Shown: positions 10,940 to 61,305 of the stretch, piece by piece | How the letters are laid out: every line of letters starts with the position of its first letter | Position numbering within the stretch: the stretch's first letter is position 1 | Origin: Acidimicrobiia bacterium | GTDB taxonomy: Bacteria; Actinomycetota; Acidimicrobiia; Spongiisociales; Spongiisociaceae | Assembly (NCBI GenBank): GCA_963663955.1 | Contig: OY760694.1 | Coordinates: 1,158,327 to 1,222,326, forward strand | Direction of reading: 5' to 3' | Length of the DNA stretch: 64,000 bases | The notes under the pieces: model-generated | The model's database searches: none | The model's input: only the letters and a program-made list of their open reading frames with translations | What the model was told of the DNA's origin: nothing | Translations under genes and position numbers: made by a program

Positions 10940-10956
10940 CTGCGATCCCTTTCTTA

Positions 10957-11161
10957 GTCCCGATTATTCATGGATGGGGGTTTGGAGGATGAGTGGAGTA
11001 GACCATATTCGCGCCCTGACCAGGCAATACAGCTGCCGGTGTTTCCCGTCCCGGTCCGGTGTGGAGACACACCTGTCCGGTGAACGGTGGGTTTCGCCCA
11101 ATACTCGGGTTGAACTGGCGTTACGCGCCACGGTGTGTGGGAAACCTGAATAATCAGGGGC
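10957..11161 (+). mobile_element. MITE copy A (205 bp, 16-bp TIR, TA flanks)
   Basis: It begins GCCCCGATTATTCA and ends TGAATAATCAGGGG. TA dinucleotides flank it at 10955-56 and 11162-63. It sits between an ABC permease gene and the deacetylase gene, inside an operon. Confidence 0.85.
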
Positions 11162-11238
11162 TAGTGTATGTGACCGGATTGAACGTGTGTTTGCCTTTCC
11201 GCCCACTTGAGGGAGATACTCCTCATACCTGTCGCCCA

Positions 11239-12159
11239 TTACTCGGCCCAGCGGGTCAGCCATATAAGGGTCTTGTTGGCGACGAGGTATGTGACTGCTG
11301 CGAAAAGGATGACCACCAGACCTGTTAGGGCCACGACATCGGTGGAGGCGTAATAGAGTGCGCTCTGGAGGACATGGCCGAGTCCGACCTGCTGTCCCAG
11401 AAACTCCGCCGCTAACGCAGCACTCCAGGAGAACGCCACCGCCAGCAATAGTCCACCTCTTAGTTGAGGGAACGCGGCCGGAAACACAACCCGGGCGTAG
11501 GTACGTATAGGGCTGGCGCCAAGACTTCTAGCGTACTGCGAATAGTGAAGGGGAACATTGCCGATTGCGTTGATCGTGATTGCGAAGAGCAAGATACCGA
11601 CTGCAAAGGCTATAAACGTAAGAACACCAAGTTGGCTATCACCAAACCAGAGGGCGAACAGCGGGATCATTGCGAGCAGAGGCATCATACGAGCCAGGTG
11701 GGCGGGGAAGGTCAACAAACCTCTAGCCACCTTTGACCAAGCGATTAGGAAACCCAATCCAACCCCTGTGACAACCCCTATCGTGTAGCCGGCGATTGTC
11801 CTGAGCATCGTTACGAATGTGTTGTGGCCCAAGCCCAGCGCAGCCCCCCAATTTGTGGGCTCGGCTCCGGTTCTAGTGGATTCGGCGCCTAGGCCCCCCT
11901 GCCAGTAACCCGCGTACTCGATGAAAGCGCGGAAGATGTCCTCAAAGCCGGGAACGCGTTTGAACCCCACGGTTTCACCTAGGACTATCGACGCAGTTTG
12001 CCAGCCTCCGATGATCGTTAGGAACGAGAGGATGGCCAGCGGATGCAGTCGACCGGCTTTGCGCTTGGGACCGGTTCCATCATCCTGAATGGTACTAACG
12101 GACCCTTCCTGACCCGATTGCTGAGTGTCCGGCCCTGTACTGGGCGCCTCGGCACTCAT
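11239..12159 (-). CDS. ABC transporter permease (NitT/TauT type)
   Basis: 306 aa membrane protein with a permease signature. It overlaps the ATPase gene by 4 bp. Confidence 0.85.
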   Translation of the reverse strand: MSAEAPSTGPDTQQSGQEGSVSTIQDDGTGPKRKAGRLHPLAILSFLTIIGGWQTASIVLGETVGFKRVPGFEDIFRAFIEYAGYWQGGLGAESTRTGAEPTNWGAALGLGHNTFVTMLRTIAGYTIGVVTGVGLGFLIAWSKVARGLLTFPAHLARMMPLLAMIPLFALWFGDSQLGVLTFIAFAVGILLFAITINAIGNVPLHYSQYARSLGASPIRTYARVVFPAAFPQLRGGLLLAVAFSWSAALAAEFLGQQVGLGHVLQSALYYASTDVVALTGLVVILFAAVTYLVANKTLIWLTRWAE

Positions 12160-13031
12160 GCGATCTCCAGATCCCCAAAATGTAGTACAACCCTTCGGCG
12201 AATAGCCGATGCTTCCTCGCTAGTGATCATGTAGGTAGAACGAGGCCTTGGCAGGGCAACCGCTACGTCTTCGACGATCCGTCCATCCTTGACGACTAGT
12301 ATGCGATCCCCGAGCGCTAAGGCCTCATCTACATCGTGAGTGATCATGAAGACCGCTCGGTGGCCGCCTTCCGCCCATAGATCAAGCAGTACCTTGTGGA
12401 GTTGTGCCCGACGTAGGTAATCCAATCCGACGAAGGGTTCGTCCATTAGGAATACATCGGGCTCGTTTGCGAATACGGCTGCGATGGCGACCCTCCGTCG
12501 CATCCCTCCCGACAGTTGACGTGGCCAAGCACCGGCAAAGTCCTCTAGACCTACTATCTTCAAATAGCGTTCCACCGTGGCCTTGCGCTCCGGCTTGGGT
12601 ACGCCTCGGGCTTCCAACCCGAAGGAAATGTTGGCGGCCACCCTTCTCCACAAGAACAACGTGTCCCGCTGGAACACCACGCCTCGATCGGGTCCCGGTC
12701 CTTCTACCGGTCTTCCGTTCACAGAGATCTCGCCGTTGGTGGGCTCAATGAACCCGGCAATCAAGTTCAGCAGGGTTGACTTCCCGTGACCGGATGGTCC
12801 GACCACGCAGACGAACTCTCCACGAGCAACCGTGAGGGAGGCGTCTCTCACCGCGGTGAGTTCCTCTCCGGACTCCAAGACGAAGGTCTTGGTAACCGAT
12901 CTGAGTTCGATCGCGGGTGGTGAAGAGGTCCGGGGAGTTGTCGTGCGGCTTCCTGTTGAGTGAACTCGGCCTGCGTCCGTCGCGCCGGGATCAATCTGCG
13001 CCATGTCCCCGACGCTGTCAATTTCCTGCAT
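12156..13031 (-). CDS. ABC transporter ATP-binding protein
   Basis: Walker A GPSGHGKST, ABC signature LSGGMRRR and Walker B FLMDEP are all present. Confidence 0.9.
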   Translation of the reverse strand: MQEIDSVGDMAQIDPGATDAGRVHSTGSRTTTPRTSSPPAIELRSVTKTFVLESGEELTAVRDASLTVARGEFVCVVGPSGHGKSTLLNLIAGFIEPTNGEISVNGRPVEGPGPDRGVVFQRDTLFLWRRVAANISFGLEARGVPKPERKATVERYLKIVGLEDFAGAWPRQLSGGMRRRVAIAAVFANEPDVFLMDEPFVGLDYLRRAQLHKVLLDLWAEGGHRAVFMITHDVDEALALGDRILVVKDGRIVEDVAVALPRPRSTYMITSEEASAIRRRVVLHFGDLEIA

Positions 13032-13336
13032 CTTAAGCTGCCACCTCCCTCCAGGCTGGGCGCGTCCGGAGTGGACTTATCAGGAATCTACTTCGTCCGG
13101 CGGCTTCCCGGGCTGTACTGCGGTTGATAGCAGGTTTGGGTTAGCCGGAATGCAAGTCGACAACACTCTCACCGAGAGCCGCCCTTGTAGGAAGCAATGC
13201 ACCCTTCCTCCCGCTCCGCCGGGAATGCCTCATTGAGAACTTGCGTTCCAATGCGGGAACGAATGACGGAACCCGCAGGGTCCGGTCTCGGACGACCTGC
13301 GGGTTCCACTCCTCAGCCTCTTAGGTTTCTATACGT

Positions 13337-16925: not shown

Positions 16926-17109
16926 CGTGCCATCTCCTCATGCTCTCTCGTGACAGAACTGCCGGTTAGTTCAAAACCGGTCGTCTATTGTCGACAATAC
17001 GCGTTAATACTGTACTGTCGGCAACCCCGAGGCGCAACTGTCGGGTTGTGGACGAGGGACCGATTCGACCGAGGCAATAGCCTTGGATGATTCATGTTGC
17101 GTAGTTGTT

Positions 17110-17958
17110 TCAGGAGGTCTTCGGCGGTCCCTTTCGAATGTGGTAGCGGAAGACCTCGACGTCCGCGTGAGTGGCGGTATCAAAGCTTGGACCATCATGT
17201 AGCCATGTAACGCCCGCTCGTTCGTACTCCTCGATCAGCCCAGGCGCCAAGCCGCTTCGATCAACCATGCCTTCCAGAAAGATAGACACGTCGAATGGCT
17301 TGCCTCTATCGCGGTAACGGTTGGTATATCCCATCACTTCCCGCACATCGCTAGGCGTCATCTGCTCGTCTCCTACCTTCATCGGAAACACGCCGTCCCA
17401 GTGGGCGGCCCGCCGGAATGGTGCTCGATGAGGCCACTTTCCAGCGATCCAGATCGGAATCCGCGGTTGCTGGACAGGGCGTGGTAGGAATGTGAAAGGC
17501 TCGATCCGGTTGTATTTGCCCTGATACCCGTACGGCTGACCGCTCCACATCCCTGCGATGATCTCAAGTCCCTCGTCCAGTTTGGCTGCCCGAATCCGAG
17601 CATCGGGATTCTCTCCGAACGCGTCAAACTCCGTATCGGCGGGGTTACCCAGACCTGCACCGAAGACCAGTCGGCCTCCGGATAACCGGTCGAGTGACGT
17701 TGCTTCGCGAGCAACCTTCCATGGCCTCCTCCGAGCGACCGGGGTGACCATCGGACCGATCCGGATCCGCTTTGTTTTAGTAGCTATCGCAGCCAACGCG
17801 ATCCAAGGATCGGCAATCGAGTTCCGATCCCAAAGCAGGATGTGGTCCCAAAGGAAGAACCCGTCCCAACCGGCCTGATCGGCATGGTCGGCCAACTCCA
17901 TCAAAGTGTTGGGATCCGACAGTGCGCCGAAATTCGGGACGTTCAGAGCGAAACGCAT
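17110..17958 (-). CDS. LLM-class (luciferase-like) flavin/F420-dependent oxidoreductase
   Basis: 282 aa. The N-terminus MRFALNVPNFG...WDGFFLWDH is typical of LLM oxidoreductases. Confidence 0.85.
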   Translation of the reverse strand: MRFALNVPNFGALSDPNTLMELADHADQAGWDGFFLWDHILLWDRNSIADPWIALAAIATKTKRIRIGPMVTPVARRRPWKVAREATSLDRLSGGRLVFGAGLGNPADTEFDAFGENPDARIRAAKLDEGLEIIAGMWSGQPYGYQGKYNRIEPFTFLPRPVQQPRIPIWIAGKWPHRAPFRRAAHWDGVFPMKVGDEQMTPSDVREVMGYTNRYRDRGKPFDVSIFLEGMVDRSGLAPGLIEEYERAGVTWLHDGPSFDTATHADVEVFRYHIRKGPPKTS

Positions 17959-18215
17959 TGCGATGTGATCCTACCGATAGGAATGGTCGGCAATCTTCCG
18001 ATCCTCTGAATGTGTCTCTCTGCCTGCTGGTTAAGTTGCAATGCCGCCCCGGTTGGAGGATTGGGAGGGTGTTGAAAAAGGACGTACAAGGGGTTCGCGC
18101 CAGGTACACAGCATCTAGCTACCAGGCAGTTTGCCGGACTGCGAACCCCGCTAGATCATTGTTCGGTACCCTCCTAGAGTCTGTATCTTGTCGACAATCG
18201 ACATAGGAGTCGAAT

Positions 18216-19502
18216 ATGCCGCTTGAAAAGCCTCGCCACCTGTCCCCAATCCTTACGCGTGCGACCGCCGTCCACGCTGCTCGCGGGGAGGGTGTCCATA
18301 TCATCGATCACCAAGGTAGGAAGTACCTGGACTTCACCTCCGGCATCGGAGTCACCAGCACCGGCCACTGCCATCCGAAGGTGGTTGAAGCGATTAGGAA
18401 ACAGTCCGGGAAGCTGATTCACGGACAGTACACAACCGTTCTCCATCCTCTTCTCGAGGAACTCGCAATTCGCCTGACAGAGGTGCTACCCGGCGAGATC
18501 GACAGCCTGTTCTATGTCAGCGCAGGTACCGAAGCCGTGGAAGCATCGGTCCGTCTGGCCCGCAACGCAACCGGCAAGTCGAATCTGGTGGTGTTCCACG
18601 GCGGGTTCCACGGCCGTACAACAGCCTCGCTATCGATGACCACCTCGAAGACCGGTTACGGAGACGGACTGCAACCCCTGATGGCCGGTGTGTTCGTAGC
18701 GCCGTTTCCTTATGCGTATCGCTATGGATGGGGTATCGAGGAGGCCGTTGACTTCTGCTTGAGGGAATTGGACTTCCTATTCGCGACCCAGACGGCGCCC
18801 AACGAAACCGCCGCAATGGTTGTGGAGCCTGTTCTGGGGGAGGGTGGTTTCGTCCCGGCGCCGGACAGGTTTCTCCAAGGGCTCCGGGAGCGGTGCGATC
18901 TTCATGGAGTTCTTTTGATTGTTGACGAGGTTCAGGCGGGGTTCGGACGCACAGGGAGTTTCTGGGGTCATGACCGTTCTGGTGTCATTCCTGACGTGGT
19001 CATCATGGCCAAGGGACTGGCTTCCGGAATGCCACTCGCTGCCATGGCTGCAAACCTGAAGCTCATGGAGAAGGCTTGGCCCGGATCACAAGGAGGCACC
19101 TACGGCGGGAACGCGGTCGGTTGCGCCGCCGCGCTGGCAACTCTCGATGTCATTCGGGAGGAACGGCTTGTTGACAACGCAGCGACGGTCGGATCCCGGT
19201 TATTGGAAAGCTTGCAGGAAGTAGCCCGGCAACATGAGGTCATCGGTGACGTGCGCGGAAGGGGCTTGATGATCGGGACGGAGTTTTCCCGTCCTGACGG
19301 TACCCCCGATGCTGAAACAGCCGCCAAGGTGCGCTACGAGTGTGAGCGTGGGGGGCTGCTGCTACTCCCATGCGGCGCGTTCGGCCAAGTGGTGAGATGG
19401 TTGCCTCCCTTGATCGTCTCGGAAGCCCAGGTCAAGGAAGCGGTCGGAATATTCGAGGCGGCTATCGCCGAAGTAACCAGTCAGGGACCGCATGAGCGAT
19501 AG
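18216..19502 (+). CDS. Class-III PLP-dependent aminotransferase (GabT/ArgD-like)
   Basis: 428 aa with class-III motifs, including DEVQAGFGRTG and the PLP lysine region. Its TAG stop is formed by the TA target site plus the first G of MITE copy B. Confidence 0.9.
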   Translation: MPLEKPRHLSPILTRATAVHAARGEGVHIIDHQGRKYLDFTSGIGVTSTGHCHPKVVEAIRKQSGKLIHGQYTTVLHPLLEELAIRLTEVLPGEIDSLFYVSAGTEAVEASVRLARNATGKSNLVVFHGGFHGRTTASLSMTTSKTGYGDGLQPLMAGVFVAPFPYAYRYGWGIEEAVDFCLRELDFLFATQTAPNETAAMVVEPVLGEGGFVPAPDRFLQGLRERCDLHGVLLIVDEVQAGFGRTGSFWGHDRSGVIPDVVIMAKGLASGMPLAAMAANLKLMEKAWPGSQGGTYGGNAVGCAAALATLDVIREERLVDNAATVGSRLLESLQEVARQHEVIGDVRGRGLMIGTEFSRPDGTPDAETAAKVRYECERGGLLLLPCGAFGQVVRWLPPLIVSEAQVKEAVGIFEAAIAEVTSQGPHER

Positions 19503-19705
19503 CCCCGATTATTCATGGATAGGGGTTTGGAGGTTGAGTGGATTAGACCATATTCGTACCCTGACCTGGAAATACAGGTATCAGCGTTTTCCCGTCCTAT
19601 CCGGTGTAGAGATTCACCTGTCGGGTGAATGGTGGGATTCTCTCAATACTCGGGTTGAACTGGCGTAACATACCTCGGTGTGTGGGAAACCTGAATAATC
19701 GGGGC
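19502..19705 (+). mobile_element. MITE copy B
   Basis: Same TIRs, TA flanks at 19500-01 and 19706-07. Confidence 0.85.
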
Positions 19706-19879
19706 TAGGTCCGCGTCGGCAAGCCATGTGACCGTTGTCCCGCGGGGGCTAGCCTCGGATTGTTCATGGATGGGGGTGTGAGGGTCGGATGGAGAGGTCA
19801 TGAAACGGGTGAACGCAGTGCTGAAAACAACCGGCGTCGCCTCGGCCTAATGTGTATCGGCTTGTCGGGAACCTTCGGT

Positions 19880-20950
19880 TCAGGAATCGGGATTGGGTGC
19901 CTGAGACACGTTGCCGGGTACGTATCCCAGCTTCTTGTCGACCACGTTGAGAAGGGGCTGACCGGTCAACCACCGATCGAGATTCTCCAAGAACTGATCC
20001 GCCAGCGCTTCGAGCCAGCCGTGGAAGTCAGCTGACATGTGAGGTGAAACTATAACGTTGGGCATGGCCCACAATGGACTATCGACCGGCAGCGGCTCGG
20101 TTTGGAAAACGTCCAGCGCAGCTCCCGCGAGCGAGCCGCTCTGAAGCGCGCCGATCAGGGCGTCCTCATCCAGCAGTTGACCTCTACCTACATTGATCAA
20201 CCGTGCCGAGGTTTTCATGAGCTTCAATTGCTTGGCGCCGATGATCCCCCGCGTGTGGTCGGTCAGTGGCAGCACGAGAATCACGAAGTCTGCGTGGGGC
20301 AGCAACAGTTCAAGGTCGTCGATAGAACGGACCAGACCGAAGTCCTTGTCTTGCCTTTCAGAGGTCGCCATCCCGATCACTTCGACCCCGAGCGATGCAG
20401 CGCTACGACCTATCGCCCGGCCGATCTCACCCGCTCCGATTATCAGTGCGTTCCGGCCCGCCAGCATCTCATTGTCCCGATGGAGCCACCTACGTTGGGA
20501 CTGAAGGGACAGGGTTGTGATCATGTCCTTGGCGAACACCAGCATCATTCCGACGACTGTTTCCGCGATGGCTTGATTGAACACGCCGCGTGCGTTGGTG
20601 ACCACAACGTTGCTGGAAGCGATCTCGGGAGTCATCACCGCGTCTACCCCGGCTGCGGCGACATGGATCCACTCAAGAGTACGGGCTCGGCCGAAGTTTT
20701 CTCGAAGCAGATCTGATCTAAAGTTCCAGAGGAGCACGATCTTTGCCTTGTGGAGCACTTCCCTCAGTTGCGTTTCCGTACGTACGTGATGGATTGCAAC
20801 TTTGTGCGCAACGGTCTCCAGTCCTGGAGGGAGCCGGCCGTCAAGTTTACCGATCACTACCAATCCGGGCGGCGAGTCGGGGCGGTGGGTAAGCATGCGT
20901 TCGTTCATAGAGACGATTCTACGGTAGCTAATACGGTCGACAATCGACAA
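19880..20950 (-). CDS. D-isomer-specific 2-hydroxyacid dehydrogenase (NAD-binding)
   Basis: NAD-binding GAGEIG motif and the catalytic R/E/H arrangement. The start could instead be the internal MNERML (about 20908). Confidence 0.8.
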   Translation of the reverse strand: MSIVDRISYRRIVSMNERMLTHRPDSPPGLVVIGKLDGRLPPGLETVAHKVAIHHVRTETQLREVLHKAKIVLLWNFRSDLLRENFGRARTLEWIHVAAAGVDAVMTPEIASSNVVVTNARGVFNQAIAETVVGMMLVFAKDMITTLSLQSQRRWLHRDNEMLAGRNALIIGAGEIGRAIGRSAASLGVEVIGMATSERQDKDFGLVRSIDDLELLLPHADFVILVLPLTDHTRGIIGAKQLKLMKTSARLINVGRGQLLDEDALIGALQSGSLAGAALDVFQTEPLPVDSPLWAMPNVIVSPHMSADFHGWLEALADQFLENLDRWLTGQPLLNVVDKKLGYVPGNVSQAPNPDS

Positions 20951-22130: not shown

Positions 22131-22336
22131 AGCCCTGATTATTCAGGTTTCCCACACACCGAGGCATACAAAGCCAGTTCCACCCGAGTATTGGGAGCAA
22201 CCCACCCGTTCACCCGACAGGTGAATCTCTACACCGGACCGGGATATAAACACCGATAGCTGTATCACCTGGTCAGGGCCGCGAATATGGTCTACTCCAC
22301 TCATCCTCCAAACCTCCATCCATGAATAATCGGGGC
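22131..22336 (-). mobile_element. MITE copy C
   Basis: Inverted orientation, TA flanks. It lies about 200 bp upstream of vapB. Confidence 0.85.
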
Positions 22337-22544
22337 TAAGTAAGGCATTACTGTCGGATGTACGTCGGGAGTTCAGGGTGGTGACCACAAATGATCGGGG
22401 CTCTGTTCTGGATTCCCTGCGCGTGCCGAACACACAAGTCGGTTTCGCCTTGCCACTAAACACTGCCATTTTTCGCTCTCAGTGCCCTGTCTGGTGTATC
22501 GGTTGGACATGTCCTAGAAAACCCCATGTGCTACTATGTAGAAC

Positions 22545-22820
22545 ATGGAAGCGGTAGGGATAAGAGAACTGAAACAGAATGCTTCGGCGGTGGTGGCTCG
22601 GGTGGCGGCGGGTGAGGCGCTGACCGTAACGCGTCGCGGCCAACCCGTTGCCCGGATGGTTCCACTCGCCGAGGACCGGATCAGGACGTTGATCGATTCC
22701 GGACTCGCACGACCGGCGCGTCGATCCGGGGCGGATCTGCCGTTACCAGTTTCCCTGGGGGAGGACCGGCCTGCTCCGTCGAAGGTGCTGGAGGAGATGC
22801 GCGAAGCCGAGCGCTTCTGA
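22545..22820 (+). CDS. vapB: Type II antitoxin, Phd/YefM-type (VapB)
   Basis: 91 aa. The N-terminus MEAVGIRELKQNASAVVARVAAGEALTVTRRGQPVARMVP is a classic Phd/YefM fold. It sits 4 bp upstream of the PIN toxin gene. Confidence 0.8.
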   Translation: MEAVGIRELKQNASAVVARVAAGEALTVTRRGQPVARMVPLAEDRIRTLIDSGLARPARRSGADLPLPVSLGEDRPAPSKVLEEMREAERF

Positions 22821-22823
22821 CCT

Positions 22824-23213
22824 TTGTTCTATCTGGACACATCCGCAGCGATAAAGTTGATCTTCATCGAGTCGGGCTCGACGGCTCTTCGAAGATGGTG
22901 GGAGTCCTCTCATTCCGAGGTGGTATCGAGTGACCTCCTGCGGACCGAGTTGACCAGGGTGGTGCAGAGGGTGGATCCGAACCGAATGGTCGAAGCGACC
23001 GTGCTGCTTGATGCGCTGGTGTTGTTGAAACTGTCGACCACGGTGTGCCGACGGGCCGGGATGCTACGACCGGCAGTTCTGCGCAGTCTGGACGCCTTGC
23101 ACCTCGCTGCGGCTTTGGAGTTGGGTGATGAGATGGCAGGTCTGGTTAGCTATGACCGGAGATTGAACGCCGCCGCCAGGGCTTCGGGGATTCCGGTTAT
23201 CAGTCCCTCTTAG
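22824..23213 (+). CDS. vapC: PIN-domain toxin VapC
   Basis: 129 aa with PIN acidic residues (LDTSA, DALHLAAA, YD). The TAG stop is created by the TA target site plus the first G of MITE copy D. Confidence 0.85.
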   Translation: MFYLDTSAAIKLIFIESGSTALRRWWESSHSEVVSSDLLRTELTRVVQRVDPNRMVEATVLLDALVLLKLSTTVCRRAGMLRPAVLRSLDALHLAAALELGDEMAGLVSYDRRLNAAARASGIPVISPS

Positions 23214-23416
23214 CCCTGATTATTCAGGTTTCCCACAAACCGACGCATGGAACGCCCGTTCAACATAAGTATTAGGATAAATCCAGCCTTCACCCGCGGG
23301 TGACCCTCCAACACCGGTCCGGGATGGGAAACACGATAGCTGTATTGCCTGTTCAGGGGCGTGATTACGGCGTAATCGACTCATCTGTCAAACCCCCATC
23401 CATGAATAATCGGGGT
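23213..23416 (-). mobile_element. MITE copy D
   Basis: TA flanks at 23211-12 and 23417-18, same orientation as copy C. Confidence 0.85.
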
Positions 23417-25544: not shown

Positions 25545-25741
25545 TTCCTCCGATCCGCCTCCACCTTAGGAACGGTATGTGACATGCCCCCGCACACCAC
25601 CCAGGCCGGGCTCCCACCGACTCGGGGTACGGATTAGGAGGAATCGCATGCCGAGACGACCACTGGGCTGGATCACGGGGATACCAGCAGGCCGTCTTGC
25701 GGTGTAATGCTCTGAACTGCTGACGAGGGTGCGCATCCGTT

Positions 25742-25855
25742 GGGGGAGTGTCACTGCCGAGTGGCATCATGGATTCCACCGGAAGGAGGATTTCATGGCT
25801 GTTGAAATGGCGATCTGGCGAATGACCGATTCGGGGCCGCGCCAACTTGCGTTGG
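25742..25855 (+). repeat. Repeat family 2, copy 1 (about 110 bp)
   Basis: About 75% identical to 29322-29425. Shared core: GTGTCAC..CC.AGTGGCATCATGGA.TC...GAGGA.T.A(A)ATGG.TGT.GA.ATGGCGATCTGGCG.ATGACCGA...GG.CCGCG. Confidence 0.6.
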
Positions 25856-26174
25856 CGCCGCTGCCTCAGACGACCCGGAGCTGACCGAGATGGTCGTCCC
25901 GGTCGAATGGTTCGCCACACGGCCCCTTGAGCAGGCGGTTTTGGGAGAAAGGCCTTTTCGCCTCACAGGTCACCGTCTGCAAACTGCGCGACGAGAACAC
26001 AATCAAGACGGTCGAGTCGGCGTTCGGGCTCGACTCTCCAATTGACTGATCGACCGGCCCTCAAGCCAGTGTCCCACGGCTTGCTTAGTGGACTGCCCCC
26101 ATTGCTGCTCGTCCGTTTAGGGGGGCTGATGATGGGAAGGAGGAGCCGCGAAGGTTCTCCAGAAGGTATAGCTA

Positions 26175-26379
26175 GCCCTGATTATTCAGGTTTCCTACAC
26201 ACCGAGGCATGTAACGCCGGTTCAACCCGAGTATCAGGATCACTCCACGGTTCACCCGACAGGTGGACCTCGCACACCGGACCGGGACGGGAAACGCTGA
26301 TAGCTGTATTGCCTGGTCAGGGTGAGATTATGCCCTACTCCACTCATCCTCCAAGCCCCCATCCGTGAATAATCAGGGC
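26175..26379 (-). mobile_element. MITE copy E
   Basis: TA flanks at 26173-74 and 26380-81. Confidence 0.85.
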
Positions 26380-26463
26380 TAGAGTCTTCGACTTTCCTAG
26401 ACGGGGTCGAACGGCTTCCGGGCACGGGGGAGTAGGAGGTAGAACGGTATGGACCTCGGCAGG

Positions 26464-28347
26464 CTAGAGCGCGTGAATGTCAGGGATGCGTGGCAGCACG
26501 AGGCGTTTCTTGTTGCGGCCGCGTACCCCGGCCTCGAGAACCACCTTACGGAGGCGAAGGAAGTGCGGGGTGACCTCAACGCACTCGTCATCGGCAATGA
26601 ATTCAAGAGCTTGCTCGAGCGACAGGATGCGAGGTGGAGTCAGACGGACGGTGTCGTCGGAAGCGGCGGCGCGCACGTTGGTCTGTTTCTTCTCACGGCA
26701 GATGTTGACGTTCATATCGTCGCGCCGCGGGTTCTCGCCGATAACCATGCCCTCGTAGACCTCGTCGCCGGGAGTGACGAACAGCGAAGTCCGGTCCTGC
26801 AGGGCGGCAACGGCGTAAGCCGTGACCGCGCCCCTGCGATCGGCGACTATCGAGCCTGAGCGGCGAGAGCGAAGCTCCCCCAACCACGGGGTGTAGCCTT
26901 CGAACACGCTGCCCATGAGGCCGGTGCCACGAGTCTCCGTGAGAAACTCGGTGCGGAAGCCGATGAGTCCACGGGCCGCCACGATGTAGTCGAGACGAAC
27001 CCATCCGGTGCCGTGGTTCGACATGTTCACCATGCGGGCCTTACGCTCGCCGAGGAGTTGGGTTGTCGCACCGACGAAGTCCTCGGGGACATCAATGGTG
27101 ATGCGCTCGGTCGGCTCGTGGAGGCGTCCTCCGACGGTTCGTGTGACGACTTCGGGCTTGCCGACGGTCATCTCAAAGCCCTCACGACGCATGATTTCCA
27201 CTAACACGGCGAGTTGAAGCTCGCCCCGTCCCTGAACTTCCCAGGTGTCGGGACGGTCGGTGTCCGACACTCGGATCGACACGTTGCCGACCAGTTCGGC
27301 ATCGAGACGGTTCTTGATGAGGCGGGCGGTCACCTTTTCACCGTCTAGTCCAGCCATTGGCGACGTATTGGTACCGATCGTCATCGAGAGGCTCGGCTCC
27401 TCCACCGCGATCACAGGAAGAGGAACGGGCTTGGCGAGATCGGCGAGTGTCTCACCGATGGTGATGTCGGGGATGCCGGAAATGGCGATGATCTCGCCGG
27501 CGTCGGCGTCGTAAGAATCTACTCGGTCGAGGCTCTCGGTGACATATAGGTCGGTGATCTTGGCTGTGGTGGTTGCTCCGTCGCTGCGGCACCACGCCAC
27601 GTATTGACCCTTCTTGATGGTTCCGTGGATGATGCGACAAATCGCGATGCGGCCGACATACGGGCTGGAATCGAGGTCGGTGACCCAGGCTTGGAGTGGA
27701 TGCTCCGGATCGTGGCGAGGTGGCTGGACGGTCTCAAGTAGCGTTTCGAACATGGGCCGCAGGTCGATGCCCGGCTGCAGGGGATCCAGCGTTGCAGTGC
27801 CACGGCGAGCGTTCGTGTAGACGATCGGAAAGTCGATCTGATGTTCTTTGGCGTCGAGGTCGAAGAACAACTCGTACACCTCGTCGACGACTTCGGAGAT
27901 ACGGGCATCAGGCCGATCGATCTTGTTGATCACCAACACGACGGGCAGGTCGAGTGCCAGCGCCTTGCGGAGCACGAACCGTGTCTGTGGTAGCGGACCC
28001 TCGCTCGAGTCCACCAGGAGGAGTACCCCGTCGACCATCGTCAGTGCCCGCTCTACCTCACCACCGAAATCAGAGTGCCCGGGTGTGTCGACGATGTTGA
28101 TCTTGATCTCCTCGCCGCTGTCGCGGACGTAGCGGACGGCGGTATTCTTGGCGAGGATCGTGATGCCCTTTTCCCTCTCTAGGTCCATCGAGTCCATAAC
28201 GCGCTCGGCGACCGTCTCATTGGCCCGAAAGGCGCCGGACTGCCAGAGCATGGCATCCACGAGGGTCGTCTTGCCGTGATCGACATGAGCGATGATTGCC
28301 ACGTTGCGCAGGTCTGCACGCGCGACCAGATGTCGGGATTCAGCCAT
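26464..28347 (-). CDS. typA: Translational GTPase TypA/BipA
   Basis: 627 aa. G-domain motifs AHVDHGKTT and DTPGH, plus EF-G-like domains II, III and V and the BipA C-terminal domain. Confidence 0.95.
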
Positions 28348-29037: not shown

Positions 29038-29240
29038 GCCCCGATTATTCATGGTGGGGGTTTGGAGGATGCGTGGGATAGGCCATATTCGCGTCCTGAA
29101 CAGGCAATACCGCTAACGGCGTTTTCCGTCTGGGTCCGGTGTGCAGAGGCGCCTGCAGGGTGAACGGTGGGTTTATCCTGATACTCGGGTTGATCTGGCG
29201 TTACATGCCTCGGTGTGTGGGAAACCTGAATAATCAGGGC
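29038..29240 (+). mobile_element. MITE copy F
   Basis: TA flanks at 29036-37 and 29241-42. Confidence 0.85.
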
Positions 29241-29321
29241 TAGCCACACCCGTTCGTGATGACCGTCCGGTAGAACCATCATCCGCTACAAATCCTCAAG
29301 TACTGCCTCGGCTGTCCGCCC

Positions 29322-29425: not shown

Positions 29426-29476
29426 GTGTCCTAGCTATGTCAGCAGCAGGACAAAACTTGATAAGTCACGGGATCA

Positions 29477-41762: not shown

Positions 41763-44154
<2,392 letters not shown>

Positions 44155-44481
44155 CAATACCTGTCCATCCGCTACACAAACCGTTTAACGGAAACCGGGA
44201 TCCGACCTTCGGTCGGATCCGTAGGAGACTCATACGACAACGCCCTCGCCGAATCCGTCATCGGACTATACAAAACAGAACTCATCCACAAACAGGCCCC
44301 ATGGCGTGACCGTGACCAGGTCGAGTACGCCACCCTCGAATACGTCGACTGGTTCAACCACCGGAGACTGCTCGAACCAAACGGGGACAAACCACCAACA
44401 GAGAGGGAGGCCGACTACTATCGTGACCACACACCAGCCCGGCTGGGACACACCCCGGCCCAGGTAGCTGGACTCAAGTAA
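44155..44481 (+). pseudogene. IS3-family OrfB, C-terminal part
   Basis: YLSIRYTNRLTETGIRPSVGSVGDSYDNALAESVIG...EYVDWFNHRRL is the conserved rve C-terminal region. Confidence 0.8.
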
Positions 44482-44830
44482 AAAACTCTCCGGCAAACCC
44501 GGTACGGTTCAGATCGCCATGACCGAGGTCGTGTTCGCCCCGGTGTGGGTTTGGTGGGTGTTCGGTGAGACCATAACGTTGGCCACCGGTATGGGCGGCG
44601 TTCTGATCATGGCCGCGGTCCTAGTACAGGCCCGTGCTCGTGAAATCCCGTCCGAGTCCCCACCGAACCACCCCTTGCCCGGTTTCCCCGGAAGGTGGGG
44701 TCGGCGGCGCCCCGCAAGCTGAGTATCCGGCGCGATTCAAGATTCAAGGCGTCGGTTTGTTGGAAACCTGACCAACCGGGGTTAAGGTCGGTTACCTGGT
44801 GAATCGGTATCTGGATCGATACGTGAATCG

Positions 44831-45589
44831 ATGTTACGGAGGGAGAGCGTTTTGAGGAGCCACGAGATCGACTATCAGCTTCATGGTGATGATCTCCAGT
44901 TCGTGGAGATAGCGCTGGACCCGGGAGAGTCCGTGGTTGCCGAGGCCGGCGCCATGATGTTCATCGAGGAGGGAATCGAGTTCGAGACCAAGTTGGGTGA
45001 CGGGTCGGAGCCCAATCAGGGGGCCTGGGGGAAGTTCAAGTCGGCTGGTAGAAGGGTGTTGGCCGGCGAATCGCTCTTCTTGACCCACTTCACCAACCGT
45101 GGGGGTGGCCGACGGAGCTTGGCCTTCGCGGCTCCCTATCCGGGAAAGATCATTCCCCTTGACCTGGCCGCCGTCGGGGGCCGGATTCTTGCCCAGAAGC
45201 AGGCATTTCTGTGCGCCGCCATGGGTACCAGATTGGGGATAGCCTTCACCCGGAAGTTCGGGACGGGCTTCTTCGGAGGAGAAGGGTTCGTACTGGAGGA
45301 TATCCAGGGTGATGGCTTGGCCTTCCTGCATGCGGGAGGCACTGTGGTCGAGAAGCATCTGGTGGGCGAAAGCCTCCGGATCGATACCGGGTGCATTGTG
45401 GCGTTCGAACCGCAGATACAGTACTCCATCGAACGGGCAGGCCGGGCTACGTCGATGCTGTTCGGCGGCGAGGGCTTGTTTCTTGCCACCCTCACCGGCG
45501 CCGGTCGTGTCTGGTTGCAGTCCTTGCCCTTTAACCGGTTAGTTGACGAGGTAATCAGGAACCTGCCGCCCTCAGGCTCAAGCGACTGA
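44831..45589 (+). CDS. DUF124/AIM24 (TIGR00266) family protein
   Basis: 252 aa with a glycine-rich beta pattern (FLTHFTN.GGG...FFGGEGFVL...GTVVEK) typical of AIM24/DUF124. Confidence 0.7.
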
Positions 45590-45693
45590 CCACTCCGTTC
45601 CCCCATGATCTGCTCACCGTGGGATACGTGTTCGATAAATTGTTTACACGTTGATTACTAATCTACATACTAAATCGGCTAGTCTGGATTCTG

Positions 45694-47340
45694 ATGTCGG
45701 GAGCAATCCGAGTTAGGCAAGGTGGGGATTCTCTTCCGGGTGCGTATGTGCTCACGGATGATCCCGCTTGTATGGGAGTTGATACGGTGACTGCGAAAGC
45801 AGCAATGGGGAAAGCAGCAATAATGAGGGTTAACCTTCACGAACAGGCCTATGAAGCCATCAGTCGGCTAAGGATCGCTCGATCCGACCTCAAGACTGTC
45901 GAGGCCAAGGCAGCACGGGAAGGTCTACCACACTCGGTCCGGGAATCGGTCAGCGCCTTCGCCAACACTGCCGGGGGTTTGCTGCTCTTAGGTCTTGATG
46001 AACTGACCTACCGTCCTCTGGAGGTCGATGCGCCGAAACTGGCTGAAGATCTGGCGTCGGCGTGTGCCTATGACCTCGAACCGCCCATCCAGCCCGACAT
46101 AGGTATCGTCGACGTCGGTGGGCGTCGGGTGGTTGCGGCCCTGGTTGCGGAACTACCTTCCGGACGCAAGCCCTGCTTTCTGAAGCGACGAGGAGTGAGT
46201 TGTGGTTCGTATATCCGGACCCACTCCGGAGACAGAAGGCTCACGCCCTACGAAGTCCACATCTTGGTATCCGGTCGTACTCAACCGCGTGACGATGTCG
46301 TGGTTGTTGAAGGTGCTTCACGTCGACACCTGGCGCCTGAATTGGTTGAATCCTTGTTGAGTCGAGTCAGGTCACATCGGGGCAGGATCGTTGCCGATTC
46401 GAGCGACGAGGAGATACTCAGCATGATGAACGTTTTGATCGGGGGTGATCCCGAGCGGGTGAGTCTGGCCGGCCTCATGGCCCTCGGTCGTTATCCTCAG
46501 CAGTTCTTTCCCCAGCTCAACGTCCATTTTATGGCTTTTGCCACCCCATCGGGCGATCCCTTGGAAGATGGATCGCGGTTCCTCGACAATGAATCCATCG
46601 ATGGTCCTATACCGTTGATGGTGGCTCGCACGCAAGCAGCCGTTCTGCGCAATATGACCCGCCGCACCGTGGTAACCGAATCAGGACGGTTCGATCAGTG
46701 GGACTACCCCGAAGAGGTCATCCGCGAACTGGTCGTAAACGCATTGGAACATCGCGATTACCATCCCCTCGCCCATGGATGGGAAGTGTGGGTAAAGATG
46801 TACCCGGACCGGTTGGAGGTCACGAGTCCCGGTGGGCTGCACGGTCCGATGGATCGCAGGCGGCTCATGTCCGATCCGGTTACGTCCTCTCGTAATCCAT
46901 ATCTCGCCAAGCTTCTCGAGGATGTACAGGTTCCGACGACAAGCCGGAGCGTTTGTGAGAGTCGTGGGTCCGGGCTGATCTCGATAGCGGCTTCACTCCG
47001 TAGGTGCGGGCTCATGCCACTTCATTTGATGGACCGAATCGATAGATTCACCGCGGTCGTGCGAAGCAAGCGGTGCAGCGCCCAGGAAAGTAACGAGTTG
47101 TGGGCGCCCCGATCGCGAGTGGGGACCAATCACAACTCCCGTCGGGGGGATCGCAGGACTGCCATCGTCGAGCTTCTCGCGGTCGGACCCAGATCCAGCC
47201 GGGAACTGGCGGGAGAACTCGGTATGACTCCTCAGGGTATCCTTCGATGGTTGCGCCGGATGGAAGCATCGGGTGAGGTCTGGCCCACGGAGGTGTCACG
47301 CCGGAGCCCGAGGAACCGGTGGCAACTGGCCGACAGATAG
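45694..47340 (+). CDS. Putative regulator with a Schlafen-like AlbA_2 domain, a HATPase_c_4 domain and a C-terminal wHTH
   Basis: AlbA_2 region ESVSAFANTAGGLLLLGLDE and HATPase_c_4-like ELVVNALEHRDY...LEVTSPGGL. The start is uncertain (alternative MRVNLHEQ near 45823). Confidence 0.65.
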   Translation: MSGAIRVRQGGDSLPGAYVLTDDPACMGVDTVTAKAAMGKAAIMRVNLHEQAYEAISRLRIARSDLKTVEAKAAREGLPHSVRESVSAFANTAGGLLLLGLDELTYRPLEVDAPKLAEDLASACAYDLEPPIQPDIGIVDVGGRRVVAALVAELPSGRKPCFLKRRGVSCGSYIRTHSGDRRLTPYEVHILVSGRTQPRDDVVVVEGASRRHLAPELVESLLSRVRSHRGRIVADSSDEEILSMMNVLIGGDPERVSLAGLMALGRYPQQFFPQLNVHFMAFATPSGDPLEDGSRFLDNESIDGPIPLMVARTQAAVLRNMTRRTVVTESGRFDQWDYPEEVIRELVVNALEHRDYHPLAHGWEVWVKMYPDRLEVTSPGGLHGPMDRRRLMSDPVTSSRNPYLAKLLEDVQVPTTSRSVCESRGSGLISIAASLRRCGLMPLHLMDRIDRFTAVVRSKRCSAQESNELWAPRSRVGTNHNSRRGDRRTAIVELLAVGPRSSRELAGELGMTPQGILRWLRRMEASGEVWPTEVSRRSPRNRWQLADR

Positions 47341-47398
47341 CGCTTTCCATATGGGATAGAAGCTATCCGAGGCCGGTTAGATTACAGAGTCGGGATTA

Positions 47399-47602
47399 GC
47401 CCCGATCATTCATGGATGGGGGTTTGGAGGATGAGTGGAGAAGACCAGATTCGCGCCCTGACCAGGCAGTACAGCTATCGGCGCTTCCCGTTTCGGTCCG
47501 GTGTAGAGTTTCACCTGTCGGGTGAACGGCGAGTTTCTCTTGATACTCGGGTTGAACAGGCGTTACATGCCTCGGTGTGTGGGAAACCTGAATAATCAGG
47601 GC
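47399..47602 (+). mobile_element. MITE copy G
   Basis: TA flanks at 47397-98 and 47603-04. It sits 30 bp upstream of the acyl-CoA synthetase start. Confidence 0.85.
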
Positions 47603-47635: not shown

Positions 47636-49174
47636 ATGAAAGTTCCTCTGACGATCCGGGATTTTCTGGATCGAGCCGCCTTGGTCTATCCGGACCGTCC
47701 CGCAGTCATCGACGAGCCCGACCAGCCGGCCCCCGGTTGGGGCACGCTCACCTACCGAGAGGTGGTGATTCGAGCCCGGGCTCTGGCGGCCGCCTTGGAC
47801 CGCTACGGGATCGGCCCGGGTGAACGGGTGGCCATGGTTTCGCACAACTCAGCACGCCTCCTAGTGATGATGCTGGGTGTAAGTGCTTACGGTCGTATTT
47901 CAGTTCCGATCAACTTCCGCCTTAACGCCGAGGAAGTTCGATACATAGTCTCCCACAGCGGGGCGCGGTTGCTGCTGATCGATCCGGAATTGGAGGATGA
48001 CCTAGCAGGTGTGGGTTGCGAACATCTATACGTATTCGGGGCCGAGGCAGACGACGTGCTGTTCGGCGATCGGGATGCCGATCCTCGCCCATGGATACCG
48101 GATGAAGATTTGACAGCCACCATCAACTATACGAGTGGAACCACCGCCCGGCCGAAGGGTGTACAGATGACTCACCGTAGCCTATGGCTGAACGCCGTGA
48201 CCTTCGGGTGGACTGCGGGAGTAAATGATCACGACGTCTACTTACACACCCTTCCCATGTTTCACTGCAATGGCTGGGGCATGACCTATGCCCTTACCGG
48301 AGTGGGGGCTACCCAGGTCGTGATCAGGAAGGTGGACGGATCCGAGATACTTCGCCGGGTGGACCGCTACGGCGTGACATATATGTGTGGCGCTCCGGCG
48401 GTTGTGGCCGCCGTCCTGGCCGCCGCTGAGAGGTGGCGGGGTGCGATACCGGGTTCAGGTACGGTCCGGATGACGGTGGCGGGGGCGCCGCCTCCCACGC
48501 GCACGATCCGGAGGATGGAGACAGAACTCGGATGGGAGTTCATGCAGCTGTACGGCCTTACCGAAACCGCTCCTTATTTGACCATGAACCGGTTACGGCC
48601 TGAGTGGGTGGATCTGACGAGCGAGGAAAAGGCCCGCCTCCTTGCGCGGCAAGGGGTTCCGGCGCTCGGTATCAACCTTAAAGTATCAAAGGAGGGTGAG
48701 GTTAAAGCGAAAGGTAACCATGTTATGGAAGGTTACTGGGGCCAACCGGAATCCACGCGTAAGGCTCTGGAAGGCGGATGGTTCCATACGGGGGATGGCG
48801 GCTATCTCGATAATGAGGATTACCTGGTTCTAACCGATCGTCGTAAGGACGTGATCATCAGCGGCGGCGAGAACATATCATCCATCGAGGTGGAGGACTG
48901 CCTCTTTAGCCATCCCGATGTGGATGAGGTGGCGGTTATAGGCGTCCCCGATGATCGCTGGGGCGAGACACCAAAGGCGTTGGTGGTCCGAGTCGATGGG
49001 TCGGAGGTCACGTCCGGGGAGTTGATCGAGTATTGCCGCACTCGAATGGCCCATTACAAGTGTCCCACCTCGGTCGAATTCCGCAAGCGACTCGCTAGAA
49101 CGGCAACCGGGAAACTACAGAAATACAAGCTGCGCGGCCCGTACTGGGAGGGTCGGGAGCGCCGTATCAACTAG
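47636..49174 (+). CDS. AMP-dependent acyl-CoA synthetase/ligase (FadD-like)
   Basis: AMP-binding motif YTSGTTARPKGV and the conserved C-terminal region GWFHTGDGGYLD. Confidence 0.9.
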   Translation: MKVPLTIRDFLDRAALVYPDRPAVIDEPDQPAPGWGTLTYREVVIRARALAAALDRYGIGPGERVAMVSHNSARLLVMMLGVSAYGRISVPINFRLNAEEVRYIVSHSGARLLLIDPELEDDLAGVGCEHLYVFGAEADDVLFGDRDADPRPWIPDEDLTATINYTSGTTARPKGVQMTHRSLWLNAVTFGWTAGVNDHDVYLHTLPMFHCNGWGMTYALTGVGATQVVIRKVDGSEILRRVDRYGVTYMCGAPAVVAAVLAAAERWRGAIPGSGTVRMTVAGAPPPTRTIRRMETELGWEFMQLYGLTETAPYLTMNRLRPEWVDLTSEEKARLLARQGVPALGINLKVSKEGEVKAKGNHVMEGYWGQPESTRKALEGGWFHTGDGGYLDNEDYLVLTDRRKDVIISGGENISSIEVEDCLFSHPDVDEVAVIGVPDDRWGETPKALVVRVDGSEVTSGELIEYCRTRMAHYKCPTSVEFRKRLARTATGKLQKYKLRGPYWEGRERRIN

Positions 49175-49383
49175 GGCCTGTTAACACTACTACGGCGGTA
49201 TGTTAGCGAGAGGTGGGTAAGTTTAGTTAAGTGTGTTTAAGGAGGCAAGGGGGGCTCGACGAAGCTACCTATACCCGATCTTATATGCTGTTAACTAACG
49301 GTTCGGTGTATCTCCAAGACTTGCGTGAACAGGCCCTAACTAACCCCGATCCTCTACTGATCAAGGATTGAAACAGGCGAGCC

Positions 49384-54323: not shown

Positions 54324-54537
54324 GTGGCTCGAATCGACGAGGAGTTGGCGGTCGAGGTTGACCGCGGCGTGGTCAGGTCCAAGTCGGAGGCGGTTCGTTG
54401 GGGACTGCGGGAACTCCTCGAGCGGGAGAGACGTCAAACCATCGGGGCTGCGATTGTTGAGGGGTACCGGCGCATCCCACAGACCGGGAGTGAGGCCGGC
54501 TGGACAGACGATTCAGCCAGGTCCATGATCGCCCAGG
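54324..54537 (+). pseudogene. parD: ParD-family (ribbon-helix-helix) antitoxin gene truncated by a partial MITE; no cognate toxin gene follows
   Basis: The frame reads VARIDEELAVEVDRGVVRSKSEAVRWGLRELLERERRQTIGAAIVEGYRRIPQTGSEAGWTDDSARSMIAQ, resembling ParD (..SASEVIRSALRLLE..E..L..I.EG..SG..). It reads through into repeat sequence at 54538. Confidence 0.5.
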
Positions 54538-54617
54538 TAGCTGTATTGCCTGGTCAGGGGCGTGATTACGGCGTAATCGACTCATCTGTCAAACCCCCAT
54601 CCATGAATAATCGGGGT
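54538..54617 (-). mobile_element. MITE partial copy H (right half only)
   Basis: 79 of 80 positions identical to the right half of copy D. It ends with a TA flank at 54618-19. Confidence 0.8.
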
Positions 54618-54726
54618 TACTGGTTACCCACCGGTATGCAGAGGGGGTGTGACAGTTTTTTACGGCGGTCGGGCAGCGCCCGTCAGAAAGATTTCTCGGT
54701 CTCCCGAACACAAGCGACACAACGAT

Positions 54727-59406: not shown

Positions 59407-59431
59407 CCGAGCAGGAACCGCTGAACACCTA

Positions 59432-60712
59432 ATGGAGATAGCAAAAGTCCAAGTCCAGAACGAAGATCCTGTCGATCTGCCGGTTGTGAAGGGAACGGAA
59501 GGTGGTAGGGCGATCAGCATTGCGCATCTTCGTAGCGCCACCGGTTTCGTGACCTTCGACCCGGGTTACGGCAACACGGCCGAGGCGGCCAGCGCCATCA
59601 CCTTCGTCGACGGTGAGAAGGGCGTACTTCGTTATCGGGGTTATCCGGTGGACCAGTTAGTCCGGCATTCCTCCTTCTTGGAGGTGTGCTACCTGCTGGA
59701 TCGGGGCGAGTTGCCCTCGCTGAACCAACTCGGGAGTTTTCGACAAGAGATTGCAGGCAACGGCTCGCTGCCGGGAGATCTGGCGACCCTTCTCGAGTCC
59801 ATTCCTTCAAGTATTCACCCGATGCAGAAGTTGGCCGCGGCGGTGGCGCTTCTCGGTTCGTACCGTTCCGGCAAAGGCGGTATTGGCCGAACGGAAGATG
59901 GCGCTTCCAGCTCGATACAGCTCCTGGCCAAGTTACCGACGCTGGCAGCCTGGTCATACCGGAGCACTACCGACAAGACCTATCTGGAACCGCAGGATGA
60001 TCTGGGGTATGCCGCGAACTTCCTCAACATGATGTTCGCTCCGGGAAGCGGGCAAAATGAGATTCCGGAGGCACACATCCTGGCTCTGGAAGCCCTTCTC
60101 CTTCTTCATGCCGATCACGGCCAAAATCTCTCGACCTCGGCGGTGCGGCTGGTCGGCTCAAGTCACGCCGAGCTGTTCTCGGCTATCTCAGCGGGGATCC
60201 TCGCTCTATCAGGCCCTCTTCATGGAGGGGCCAACCAGAGTGTGATAGAGATGCTGGAGGAGATTCTCGCTACCGGTGGTGACACTCGCACATTCATCGA
60301 ACGGGCCAAGGATCGTACCGATCCCTTCCGGCTGATGGGTTTCGGTCATCGCGTGTACCGAAACTACGACCCTCGGGCCGAGTTGATCAAACAACATGCC
60401 GAGGACCTGCTGGCGGAAGGGAAGGACCCGTTGCTCGAAGTAGCTCTGCGGCTGGAGGAGGAGGCTTTGGCTGACGATTTCTTCAGCGAGCGCAGGATCT
60501 ACCCCAATGTGGACTTCTACTCGGGCATCATATACCGAGCGATGGGCTTCCCCAGCGACATGTTCACGGTTCTTTTCGCCCTAGGGCGTCTCCCCGGCTG
60601 GTTGGCTCAGTGGAGGGAGATGATCGAAGATCCCTCATCCAAGCTCAAACGCCCAAGGCAGATCTACACCGGTCACTCCCGCCGGGACTACATACCGATG
60701 GAAGATCGTTAG
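59432..60712 (+). CDS. gltA: Citrate synthase
   Basis: Catalytic motifs GFGHRVY, HADHG and the DPR region. The start MEIAKVQ at 59432 is chosen because the tool ORF start overlaps the EF-G gene. Confidence 0.9.
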   Translation: MEIAKVQVQNEDPVDLPVVKGTEGGRAISIAHLRSATGFVTFDPGYGNTAEAASAITFVDGEKGVLRYRGYPVDQLVRHSSFLEVCYLLDRGELPSLNQLGSFRQEIAGNGSLPGDLATLLESIPSSIHPMQKLAAAVALLGSYRSGKGGIGRTEDGASSSIQLLAKLPTLAAWSYRSTTDKTYLEPQDDLGYAANFLNMMFAPGSGQNEIPEAHILALEALLLLHADHGQNLSTSAVRLVGSSHAELFSAISAGILALSGPLHGGANQSVIEMLEEILATGGDTRTFIERAKDRTDPFRLMGFGHRVYRNYDPRAELIKQHAEDLLAEGKDPLLEVALRLEEEALADDFFSERRIYPNVDFYSGIIYRAMGFPSDMFTVLFALGRLPGWLAQWREMIEDPSSKLKRPRQIYTGHSRRDYIPMEDR

Positions 60713-60741
60713 GTGGGGGATATTGAAGTGAGGAATCGCTA

Positions 60742-61236
60742 GTGGATGGAATCCGGATCCCTAAGGATCTGGCCGCTGCCGAGGGCGTTCCGGAGGACCT
60801 CGACTCGGGTATTCCAGGTCCATATCGGTTTCCCTCACCGGACCGTCGGCGGTCGGCAGCCTTCATCTATGTGATGGGAGCGGTTATCGCTGCTCTTGGA
60901 GCCTTGGCCGGGCTCGCTTCCGGGTTGTGGGTGGCATCCGTGGGGTTTCTCGGACTGGCCTACTTGCATGACCGGGCCGCCTGGCCGTTGGTAGTCGACC
61001 AGGAGCAGGCTTTAGGCAGTGCGGCGACTCGCATTCCGTTCCCCGTGGGTCACGCCTCAGCGGCCCTAGGGTTTAGGGGTTTGCGATCGCGGCCGGTTTG
61101 GAACGTGATCCTCTACTCGTCTTCCGACCCCCCGGATCGTAGAGCCCTGGTACGCCTGGATGCCGTAACCGGTGAACAGATTGACAGCACCTACATCCAG
61201 GATTTGGAAGGAATCACGGTTCCGGAAGGTCTGTAA
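60742..61236 (+). CDS. Hypothetical membrane protein
   Basis: 164 aa with one or two predicted TM helices (AAFIYVMGAVIAALGALAGLASGLWVASVGFLGLAYL). No recognisable domain. Confidence 0.4.
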   Translation: MDGIRIPKDLAAAEGVPEDLDSGIPGPYRFPSPDRRRSAAFIYVMGAVIAALGALAGLASGLWVASVGFLGLAYLHDRAAWPLVVDQEQALGSAATRIPFPVGHASAALGFRGLRSRPVWNVILYSSSDPPDRRALVRLDAVTGEQIDSTYIQDLEGITVPEGL

Positions 61237-61274
61237 TCCGGTCTTCCCGAGCGGGCGCAGGCTCACAGTCGCTA

Positions 61275-61305
61275 GCCCTTATAATTCAGGTTTCCCCACA
61301 CACCG
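61275..61305 (-). mobile_element. MITE remnant I (terminal about 31 bp)
   Basis: GCCCTTATAATTCAGGTTTCCCCACACACCG preceded by TA. It lies immediately after the thrS stop. Confidence 0.6.

Follow-up and report, generated by a model that had tools for sequence, protein, structure and literature searches.

The RUP elements of Streptococcus pneumoniae, associated with IS630-Spn1, are small, non-coding and intergenic, bear terminal inverted repeats, are inserted at TA dinucleotides, number about 100 copies per genome and appear to have been mobile recently (PMC2229807). The same features characterize the subject of this analysis, a family of repeats of about 205 bp represented in a 64,000-nucleotide stretch of the chromosome of an Acidimicrobiia bacterium (positions 1,158,327 to 1,222,326 of contig OY760694.1; hereafter the window, to which all coordinates refer). 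RUP is, however, 107 bp long and its ends match those of an IS630 element in the same genome, whereas the repeats of the window are 205 bp long, possibly duplicate 3 bp of the target and have no sequence similarity to RUP, and a partner for them was found neither in the window nor in some 230 kb of related DNA. The Correia elements of Neisseria, also named NEMIS, resemble the family in being flanked by TA, in duplicating their target, in occupying sites that are filled in some strains and empty in others, and in that their transposase has not been identified; they have long inverted repeats and hundreds of copies (PMC2229807). They are 107–155 bp long, A+T-rich, and carry IHF sites and promoters, whereas a motif scan detected neither in the repeats described here, and the two families have no sequence similarity. 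Yet another parallel is offered by the miniature inverted-repeat transposable elements (MITEs) of the IS5 family (IS427, ISL2, and IS1031 groups) and by their relatives in eukaryotes, the PIF/Harbinger-Tourist elements, which combine short inverted repeats with a TA-containing duplication of 2–3 bp, as is also seen here. The triplets duplicated by the IS5/Harbinger groups are TNA or TWA, whereas the triplet duplicated here would be TAR, and no IS5-type partner was found in the same DNA.

The repeats of the window are very probably MITEs, that is, non-autonomous DNA transposons, and form a family of elements of about 205 bp that has been active recently. There is direct evidence that the family moved recently, and nothing in the copies analyzed indicates that they serve the host. 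In the mechanism proposed, a DDE transposase encoded elsewhere in the genome would bind and cleave the 14-nt terminal inverted repeats, acting in trans; insertion would take place at TA in a YTAR context, often at stop codons or in intergenic DNA of this genome of 60% G+C, and repair of the staggered cuts would duplicate TA or, more probably, TAR. RUP, Correia and elements of that kind have already made the general biology of such a system familiar. What is added is that a poorly studied, uncultured class of actinobacteria harbors a recently active MITE family whose filled and empty sites are precise; specialists in transposition might take an interest only in a duplication that may be 3 bp long (TAR), in target sites that are used more than once and in the missing transposase.

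Structure of the Family and Its Copies in the Window

Seven full copies of 203–205 bp, four on the plus and three on the minus strand, are present in the window, whose G+C content is 60%. Aligned in a common orientation, they have a mean column identity of 83%, and each scores E = 1e-61 to 1e-70 with an nhmmer profile built from the same seven. At the ends of every full copy lies the 14-nt terminal inverted repeat GCCCYGATTATTCA with its complement; with up to two mismatches this sequence occurs 16 times in the window versus 0.66 expected from shuffles. TA is found on both sides of all seven. Column identity is highest at the ends (94–96%) and lowest in the center (72–88%), and no reading frame is open in all of the aligned copies, which indicates no consistent coding capacity. 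Thirteen more full or near-full copies were found in loci L084–L092, which represent DNA fetched around element-derived open reading frames (ORFs) and around orthologues of genes of the window. In the alignment of all 20 copies, the paired inverted repeats (helix 1) are 97.5% paired.

Copy c1 (10957–11161, plus strand, 205 bp, E = 1.4e-69) is bounded by TA at 10955–10956 and 11162–11163 and has a minus-strand gene on either side. Copy c2 (19502–19705, plus strand, 204 bp, E = 2e-67) follows an aminotransferase gene (18216–19502), the TAG stop codon of which is composed of the left TA of c2 and the first G of c2 itself. Copy c3 (22132–22336, minus strand, 205 bp, E = 1e-66) has a GntR-type gene on one side and an antitoxin gene on the other, and c4 (23213–23416, minus strand, 204 bp, E = 3e-61) is placed on the TAG stop codon of a PIN toxin gene (22824–23213); c4 belongs to a divergent subfamily and is about 76% identical to the other copies. 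A BipA gene is accompanied by two copies, c5 downstream (26175–26379, minus strand, 205 bp, E = 2.7e-68) and c6 upstream (29038–29240, plus strand, 203 bp, E = 2.1e-66), and c7 (47399–47602, plus strand, 204 bp, E = 1.6e-70) lies 34 bp upstream of the start codon of an acyl-CoA ligase gene.

Besides the full copies there are several fragments. A truncated, c4-like copy at 54532–54619 on the minus strand retains only the left 87 positions (nhmmer E = 4e-23) and has a 58-nt stretch in common with c4. A 33-nt right-end relic at 61273–61305 on the minus strand, matching positions 177–208 of the model, abuts the stop codon of the threonyl-tRNA synthetase gene; its E-value of 1.5e-4 makes it weak evidence. 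Another, diverged right-end relic of 42 nt at 44743–44784 on the plus strand (model positions 167–208, E = 1.2e-4) is also present in the two related chromosomes introduced below, and must therefore be old. Beside c2, at about 19750–19894 on the plus strand, there is a degenerate, shortened relative of the family, of which the left end is recognizable as TAGCCTCGGATTGTTCATGGATGGGGG; it gives weak nhmmer matches at 19751–19794 and 19806–19874 and was also found as a repeat family.

The original prediction, made from the DNA sequence of the window, had listed the seven full copies, all of which are present where it placed them, with TA at both ends, conserved termini and a variable center. Its two partial copies were found as well, at corrected coordinates (54532–54619 and, weakly, 61273–61305); the relics at 44743–44784 and about 19750–19894 had been missed, and the inverted repeats, given as 16 bp, reach that length only if TA is counted. 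The statement that all copies are intergenic also holds, with the qualification that c2 and c4 each coincide exactly with the TAG stop of the gene upstream, a stop that is preserved.

Filled and Empty Sites in Related Chromosomes

The chromosome containing the window (genome A, 4,140,741 bp) was compared with two related chromosomes, genomes B (4,016,103 bp) and C (4,082,865 bp); the complete chromosomes besides that of A are ena:ERZ25069711:ctg17310_46x_c and ena:ERZ25084387:ctg36569l. The blocks syntenic with the window are mostly 95–98.6% identical in B and mostly 88–93% identical in C, or, in round figures, about 97% and about 90%. In the seven site comparisons among A, B and C the clean empty sites consist of one TA, and the filled counterpart reads TA-element-TA; the original prediction had proposed a comparison of this kind, and its outcome bears out the MITE interpretation.

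The c4 site is filled in A and cleanly empty, with a single TA, in both B and C. The site of c2 is filled in A and empty in B, where the sequence reads GAGCGA-TAG-GTCCGCG between flanks that are 98% identical, as compared with GAGCGA-TA[G...C]TA-GGTCCGCG in A; at the same TA genome C has a very diverged copy, 73% identical to that of A. At 54734 only genome B is filled, A and C being empty. The reverse situation, a copy absent from the window, is found at the TA at 22457–22458 (a target without strand), which is single in A (GCCTTGCCAC-TA-AACACTGCC), was not determined in B and carries a full copy in C (...CCAC-TA-[ACCCCGATT...CAGGGC]-TA-AACACTG). Three sites are filled in both A and B and empty in C: that of c1, where the same flanks are separated in C by just two bases (TC) and the copy of B is 99% identical to that of A; that of c3, where C has a single TA and the copies of A and B are 86% identical and offset by 4 nt; and that of c7. 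Finally, the TA at 49174 is empty in B (AAC-TA-ACTAAC), filled with a copy of the 205-bp family in C and occupied by another MITE in A. Genomes A and B thus differ at c2, c4 and 54734. Since these two genomes are only 2–3% apart and differ by insertions bounded by duplicated TA, transposition must have been recent.

Copies c5 and c6 lie in a segment (25863–29469) that is not present at that place in B or C. The segment, composed of c5, the BipA gene and c6, is bracketed by direct repeats of about 100 bp (25741–25841 and 29322–29423, 86% identical), and looks as if repeats around a housekeeping gene had taken part in a rearrangement or deletion. The copies of the family may mediate rearrangements, of which the displaced BipA segment could be an example.

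The Target-Site Duplication

The TA found at both ends could be the whole duplication or a part of it. The base that follows the right-hand TA is identical to the one with which the element begins in 17 of the 19 independent insertions tabulated (Fisher p = 0.003), among them five of the six copies that begin with A. Within one young subfamily the first base switches between G and A in step with the target, and whatever base follows TA in any clean empty site reappears as the first base of the element in the filled site. The two exceptions are transitions, and they are about as many as change after insertion would be expected to give at the divergence observed between copies. Because the third base of the flank tracks the first base of the element in this manner, a 3-bp duplication of TAR (TAG or TAA) is suggested, and we consider it probable that 3 bp rather than 2 bp are duplicated. 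The simplest reading is then that the element proper extends from CCCYGATTATTCA to TGAATAATCRGGGC, with its ends offset by one base. A 4-bp duplication of YTAR was also considered and was excluded by the left and right tetramers, which differ in most copies.

The target sites conform to YTAR, with TTAG, its complement CTAA, and CTAG making up most of them. Copies located exactly on TAG or TAA stop codons are c2 and c4 in the window and those at L088:13146 and L092:10051 in the related loci; the stop codon is kept in such cases because the duplication regenerates TAG or TAA.

A competing explanation, possible although somewhat doubtful, is that the MITEs are moved by a transposase of the IS630/Tc1-mariner type with a strict 2-bp duplication of TA, the inverted repeats starting directly after TA as G...C. 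The TA at each end of every full copy and the one TA of each clean empty site are as this explanation predicts. Of the 20 aligned copies, 12 have G...C as the terminal pair (pair 3–214) and four have A...T or T...A, so that the ends stay complementary. A preference for CTAG has been reported for IS630, with which the YTAR/CTAG context agrees. RUP provides the precedent of a bacterial MITE driven by IS630 (PMC2229807). Under a 2-bp duplication, however, the agreement between the first base of the element and the base after the right TA would be a coincidence. A 3-bp duplication, which IS630 elements are not known to make, would favor the IS5/Harbinger side.

Candidate Transposases and Evidence against the MITE Interpretation

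The original prediction had attributed mobilization in trans to a transposase of the IS630/Tc1-mariner type; of this, the recognition of MITEs is upheld by the empty sites, and the attribution to IS630 is not established, in view of the missing partner, the match of the third base and the existence of an alternative in IS5. IS427-group elements of the IS5 family, captured experimentally, have 2-bp repeats and inverted repeats of 13–21 bp (PMC3281130, Table 2), and a TA duplication is therefore not diagnostic of IS630. Neither the window nor about 230 kb of related DNA has a DDE_3 (IS630) gene among the genes annotated there, and the earlier statement that the window itself encodes no IS630-type transposase is correct. 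The transposase may well be of the IS5-family type (IS427, ISL2, or IS1031, related to PIF/Harbinger), which we tentatively place first; the IS630/Tc1-mariner type is a possible candidate in second place, and a transposase of some other type is unlikely.

The transposase-related features of the window, an IS3 element, an IS30 element and an IS1380-like remnant, have no ends related to those of the MITEs. As partners, two of them were considered and rejected: the IS30 element, the ends of which (TTCAATTGGTCGTCGCAACAC) are unrelated to the MITE ends, and the IS1380-like remnant (34963–35391), the sole DDE_Tnp_1-type remnant in the window, the ends of which are equally unrelated.

Several observations weigh against the interpretation of the repeats as MITEs mobilized by precise insertion with target duplication. 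Neither the window nor the related DNA yielded an autonomous element whose inverted repeats match. When the six translated frames were compared with 5.8 billion proteins, no relative of transposase size appeared, only ORFs of 51–158 amino acids overlapping other copies; accordingly, the family is not an obvious internal-deletion derivative of a sequenced element. At c7 the filled sites have one extra T in the left flank relative to the empty site of C, and the junction at 54734 in genome B is messy. The three copies with terminal A...T keep their ends complementary, which suits a 2-bp TA duplication. Lastly, three sites (c2, c3 and 54532, compared with L089, L090 and L088) hold different subfamilies in sister genomes, and at 49174 genome A carries an unrelated MITE family where C carries the 205-bp family.

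Repeated Use of the Same Sites

At c2, c3 and 54532 the copies are 73–86% identical, whereas the flanks are 90–98% identical. Where the window has the truncated copy at 54532, the same right-hand junction in genome C borders a full copy from another subfamily, and in genome B an intact PemK-like toxin gene is found there. Such exchanges of subfamilies or families at one site are not predicted by one-off insertion, so that insertion hot spots, conversion, or excision followed by re-insertion are needed to account for them. Of these, hot spots offer the simplest account, and conversion, or excision with re-insertion, is also possible.

The second MITE family is represented by an element of 163 bp at 49174–49336, flanked by TA and bounded by the ends GGGCCTGTTAACAC and GGGCCTGTTCACGC; it is the sole copy in the window and the fetched loci. 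Its ends, GGGCCTGTT, resemble the termini of IS5/Harbinger elements, which can serve only as a lead. A bolder proposal, which we regard as unlikely, is that both families are driven by an uncharacterized and very site-selective transposase with a 3-bp TAR duplication and ends offset by one base, the same TA being hit repeatedly by subfamilies and families and stop codons being often hit and regenerated; alternatively, precise excision and replacement would take place at these sites.

The presence of different subfamilies at one site also bears on the view that the repeat spread, or was exchanged, mainly by homologous recombination or gene conversion with no transposase. The differing copies of c3 in A and B and of c2 in A and C, and the copy at 54.5 kb, c4-like in A and of the young type in C, are what such exchange would leave, and the BipA segment is bracketed by two copies as well as by the 100-bp direct repeats. 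Recombination cannot, however, make new insertions bounded by duplicated TA at formerly empty sites, and the occupation of the TA at 49174 by two unrelated families is beyond conversion. As the main process it is thus highly improbable; it may act as a secondary one.

Even less probable is that the repeats are genes of structured small RNAs, or RNAs regulating in cis (terminators or carriers of promoters, for example), which selection has maintained and transposition has not spread, an alternative that the original prediction had retained and that the present data do not favor. The RNA of the minus strand folds somewhat better than shuffles (z = −2.0), and two-sided changes are seen in seven pairs, in 14 cells versus 5.8 ± 2.1 cells in shuffles. 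The longest helix of the minus-strand fold is, though, formed by the two inverted repeats, most of the two-sided changes fall in the terminal pair or follow the splits between subfamilies, the internal structure differs between the alignments of seven and of 20 copies, and the covariation term amounts to only −1.2 kcal/mol. The plus-strand RNA (z = +0.6) and the DNA fold (z = −0.6) are unremarkable, and Rfam gave no match at the gathering score or at E up to 1. A scan for promoters and terminators placed no site inside any copy. The copies have no strand bias, three being sense and four antisense to the neighboring genes, and presence or absence with a duplicated TA is not expected of a gene family. 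A single-strand, palindrome-associated element of the IS200/IS605 type, inserting without duplication beside a TTAG-like tetranucleotide, is scarcely credible: in its favor, most left flanks read YTAR and the right element end with its flank gives CTAR, but the copies have 14-nt terminal inverted repeats instead of separate subterminal hairpins, occur on both strands within one GC-skew arm, and have left and right TAR third bases that co-vary as in a duplication.

Abundance and Distribution

The closest BipA proteins, of 95% and 86% identity, are from metagenome-assembled genomes of Acidimicrobiia. Comparison of the translated element with the protein collection located element-derived ORFs only on genomes A, B and C and on a few related contigs. 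Genome A has 25 of them in the first two protein searches, of which only two are inside the window, so that at least 23 are located in other parts of that chromosome; scaling these ORFs to the seven copies of the window gives, as a rough figure, about 90 copies on genome A. Counting unseeded copies in the loci fetched around one copy gives, also roughly, one copy per 20 kb. The copy number can thus be roughly estimated as being on the order of 10^2 per 4.1-Mb chromosome, and the density in the window, one copy per 9 kb, appears to be above the genome average. The family comprises several subfamilies and appears restricted to a narrow clade of Acidimicrobiia.

A scan of viral sequences found nothing, BLAST with the element against plasmids and phages gave no match, and a metagenome scan gave a single match, a chance one within a coding region. 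The nearest reference species (L003, with the BipA protein 95% identical) has no copy in 21.8 kb, and its junction beside c6 is too diverged for a clean empty-site comparison. A literature search found no report of MITEs in Acidimicrobiia.

Many copies have been annotated by gene callers as short "proteins". More than 60 of these, of 51–158 amino acids, are present in public protein collections and represent translated MITE copies or ORFs running into copies; most of them are annotation artifacts. In the case of P0129, the element runs on into an apparent fragment of an ISL3-type transposase. Two short-read contigs from run ERR3887494, L001 and L002, encode proteins identical to those of the window and end inside c5, c6 and c7, the independent contig L001 ending within c5 and c6, which shows that the repeats break short-read assembly. 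The copies are therefore of practical concern, as they fragment such assemblies and yield dozens of spurious database "proteins"; they also mark differences at the strain level.

Other Features of the Window

An IS3-family element occupies 41700–44500 and has an ALIL frameshift pseudoknot at 42041–42157; its orfB is split by the IS30-family element (42707–44148), the inverted repeats of which are given above. A variable island (31000–47400) contains defense-like and toxin-like genes, among them those of AAA_14/DUF4143 ATPases, a PtuA-like AAA_15 ATPase (36268–38064), RES-domain and Fic/DOC proteins, and an SLFN/AlbA_2 protein with a HATPase domain. The segment at 34243–36021 is specific to genome A and holds the decayed IS1380-like transposase remnant (ORF 34963–35391) as well as, at 34334–34393, a 60-nt duplicate of the start of an ATPase gene, the original being at 37959–38018. 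Toxin–antitoxin pairs are also present outside the island, at 22545–23213 and near 54237. It is also worth mentioning that at about 17000–19000 the GC skew turns from negative to positive and the orientation of the genes shifts, which is possibly a replication landmark.

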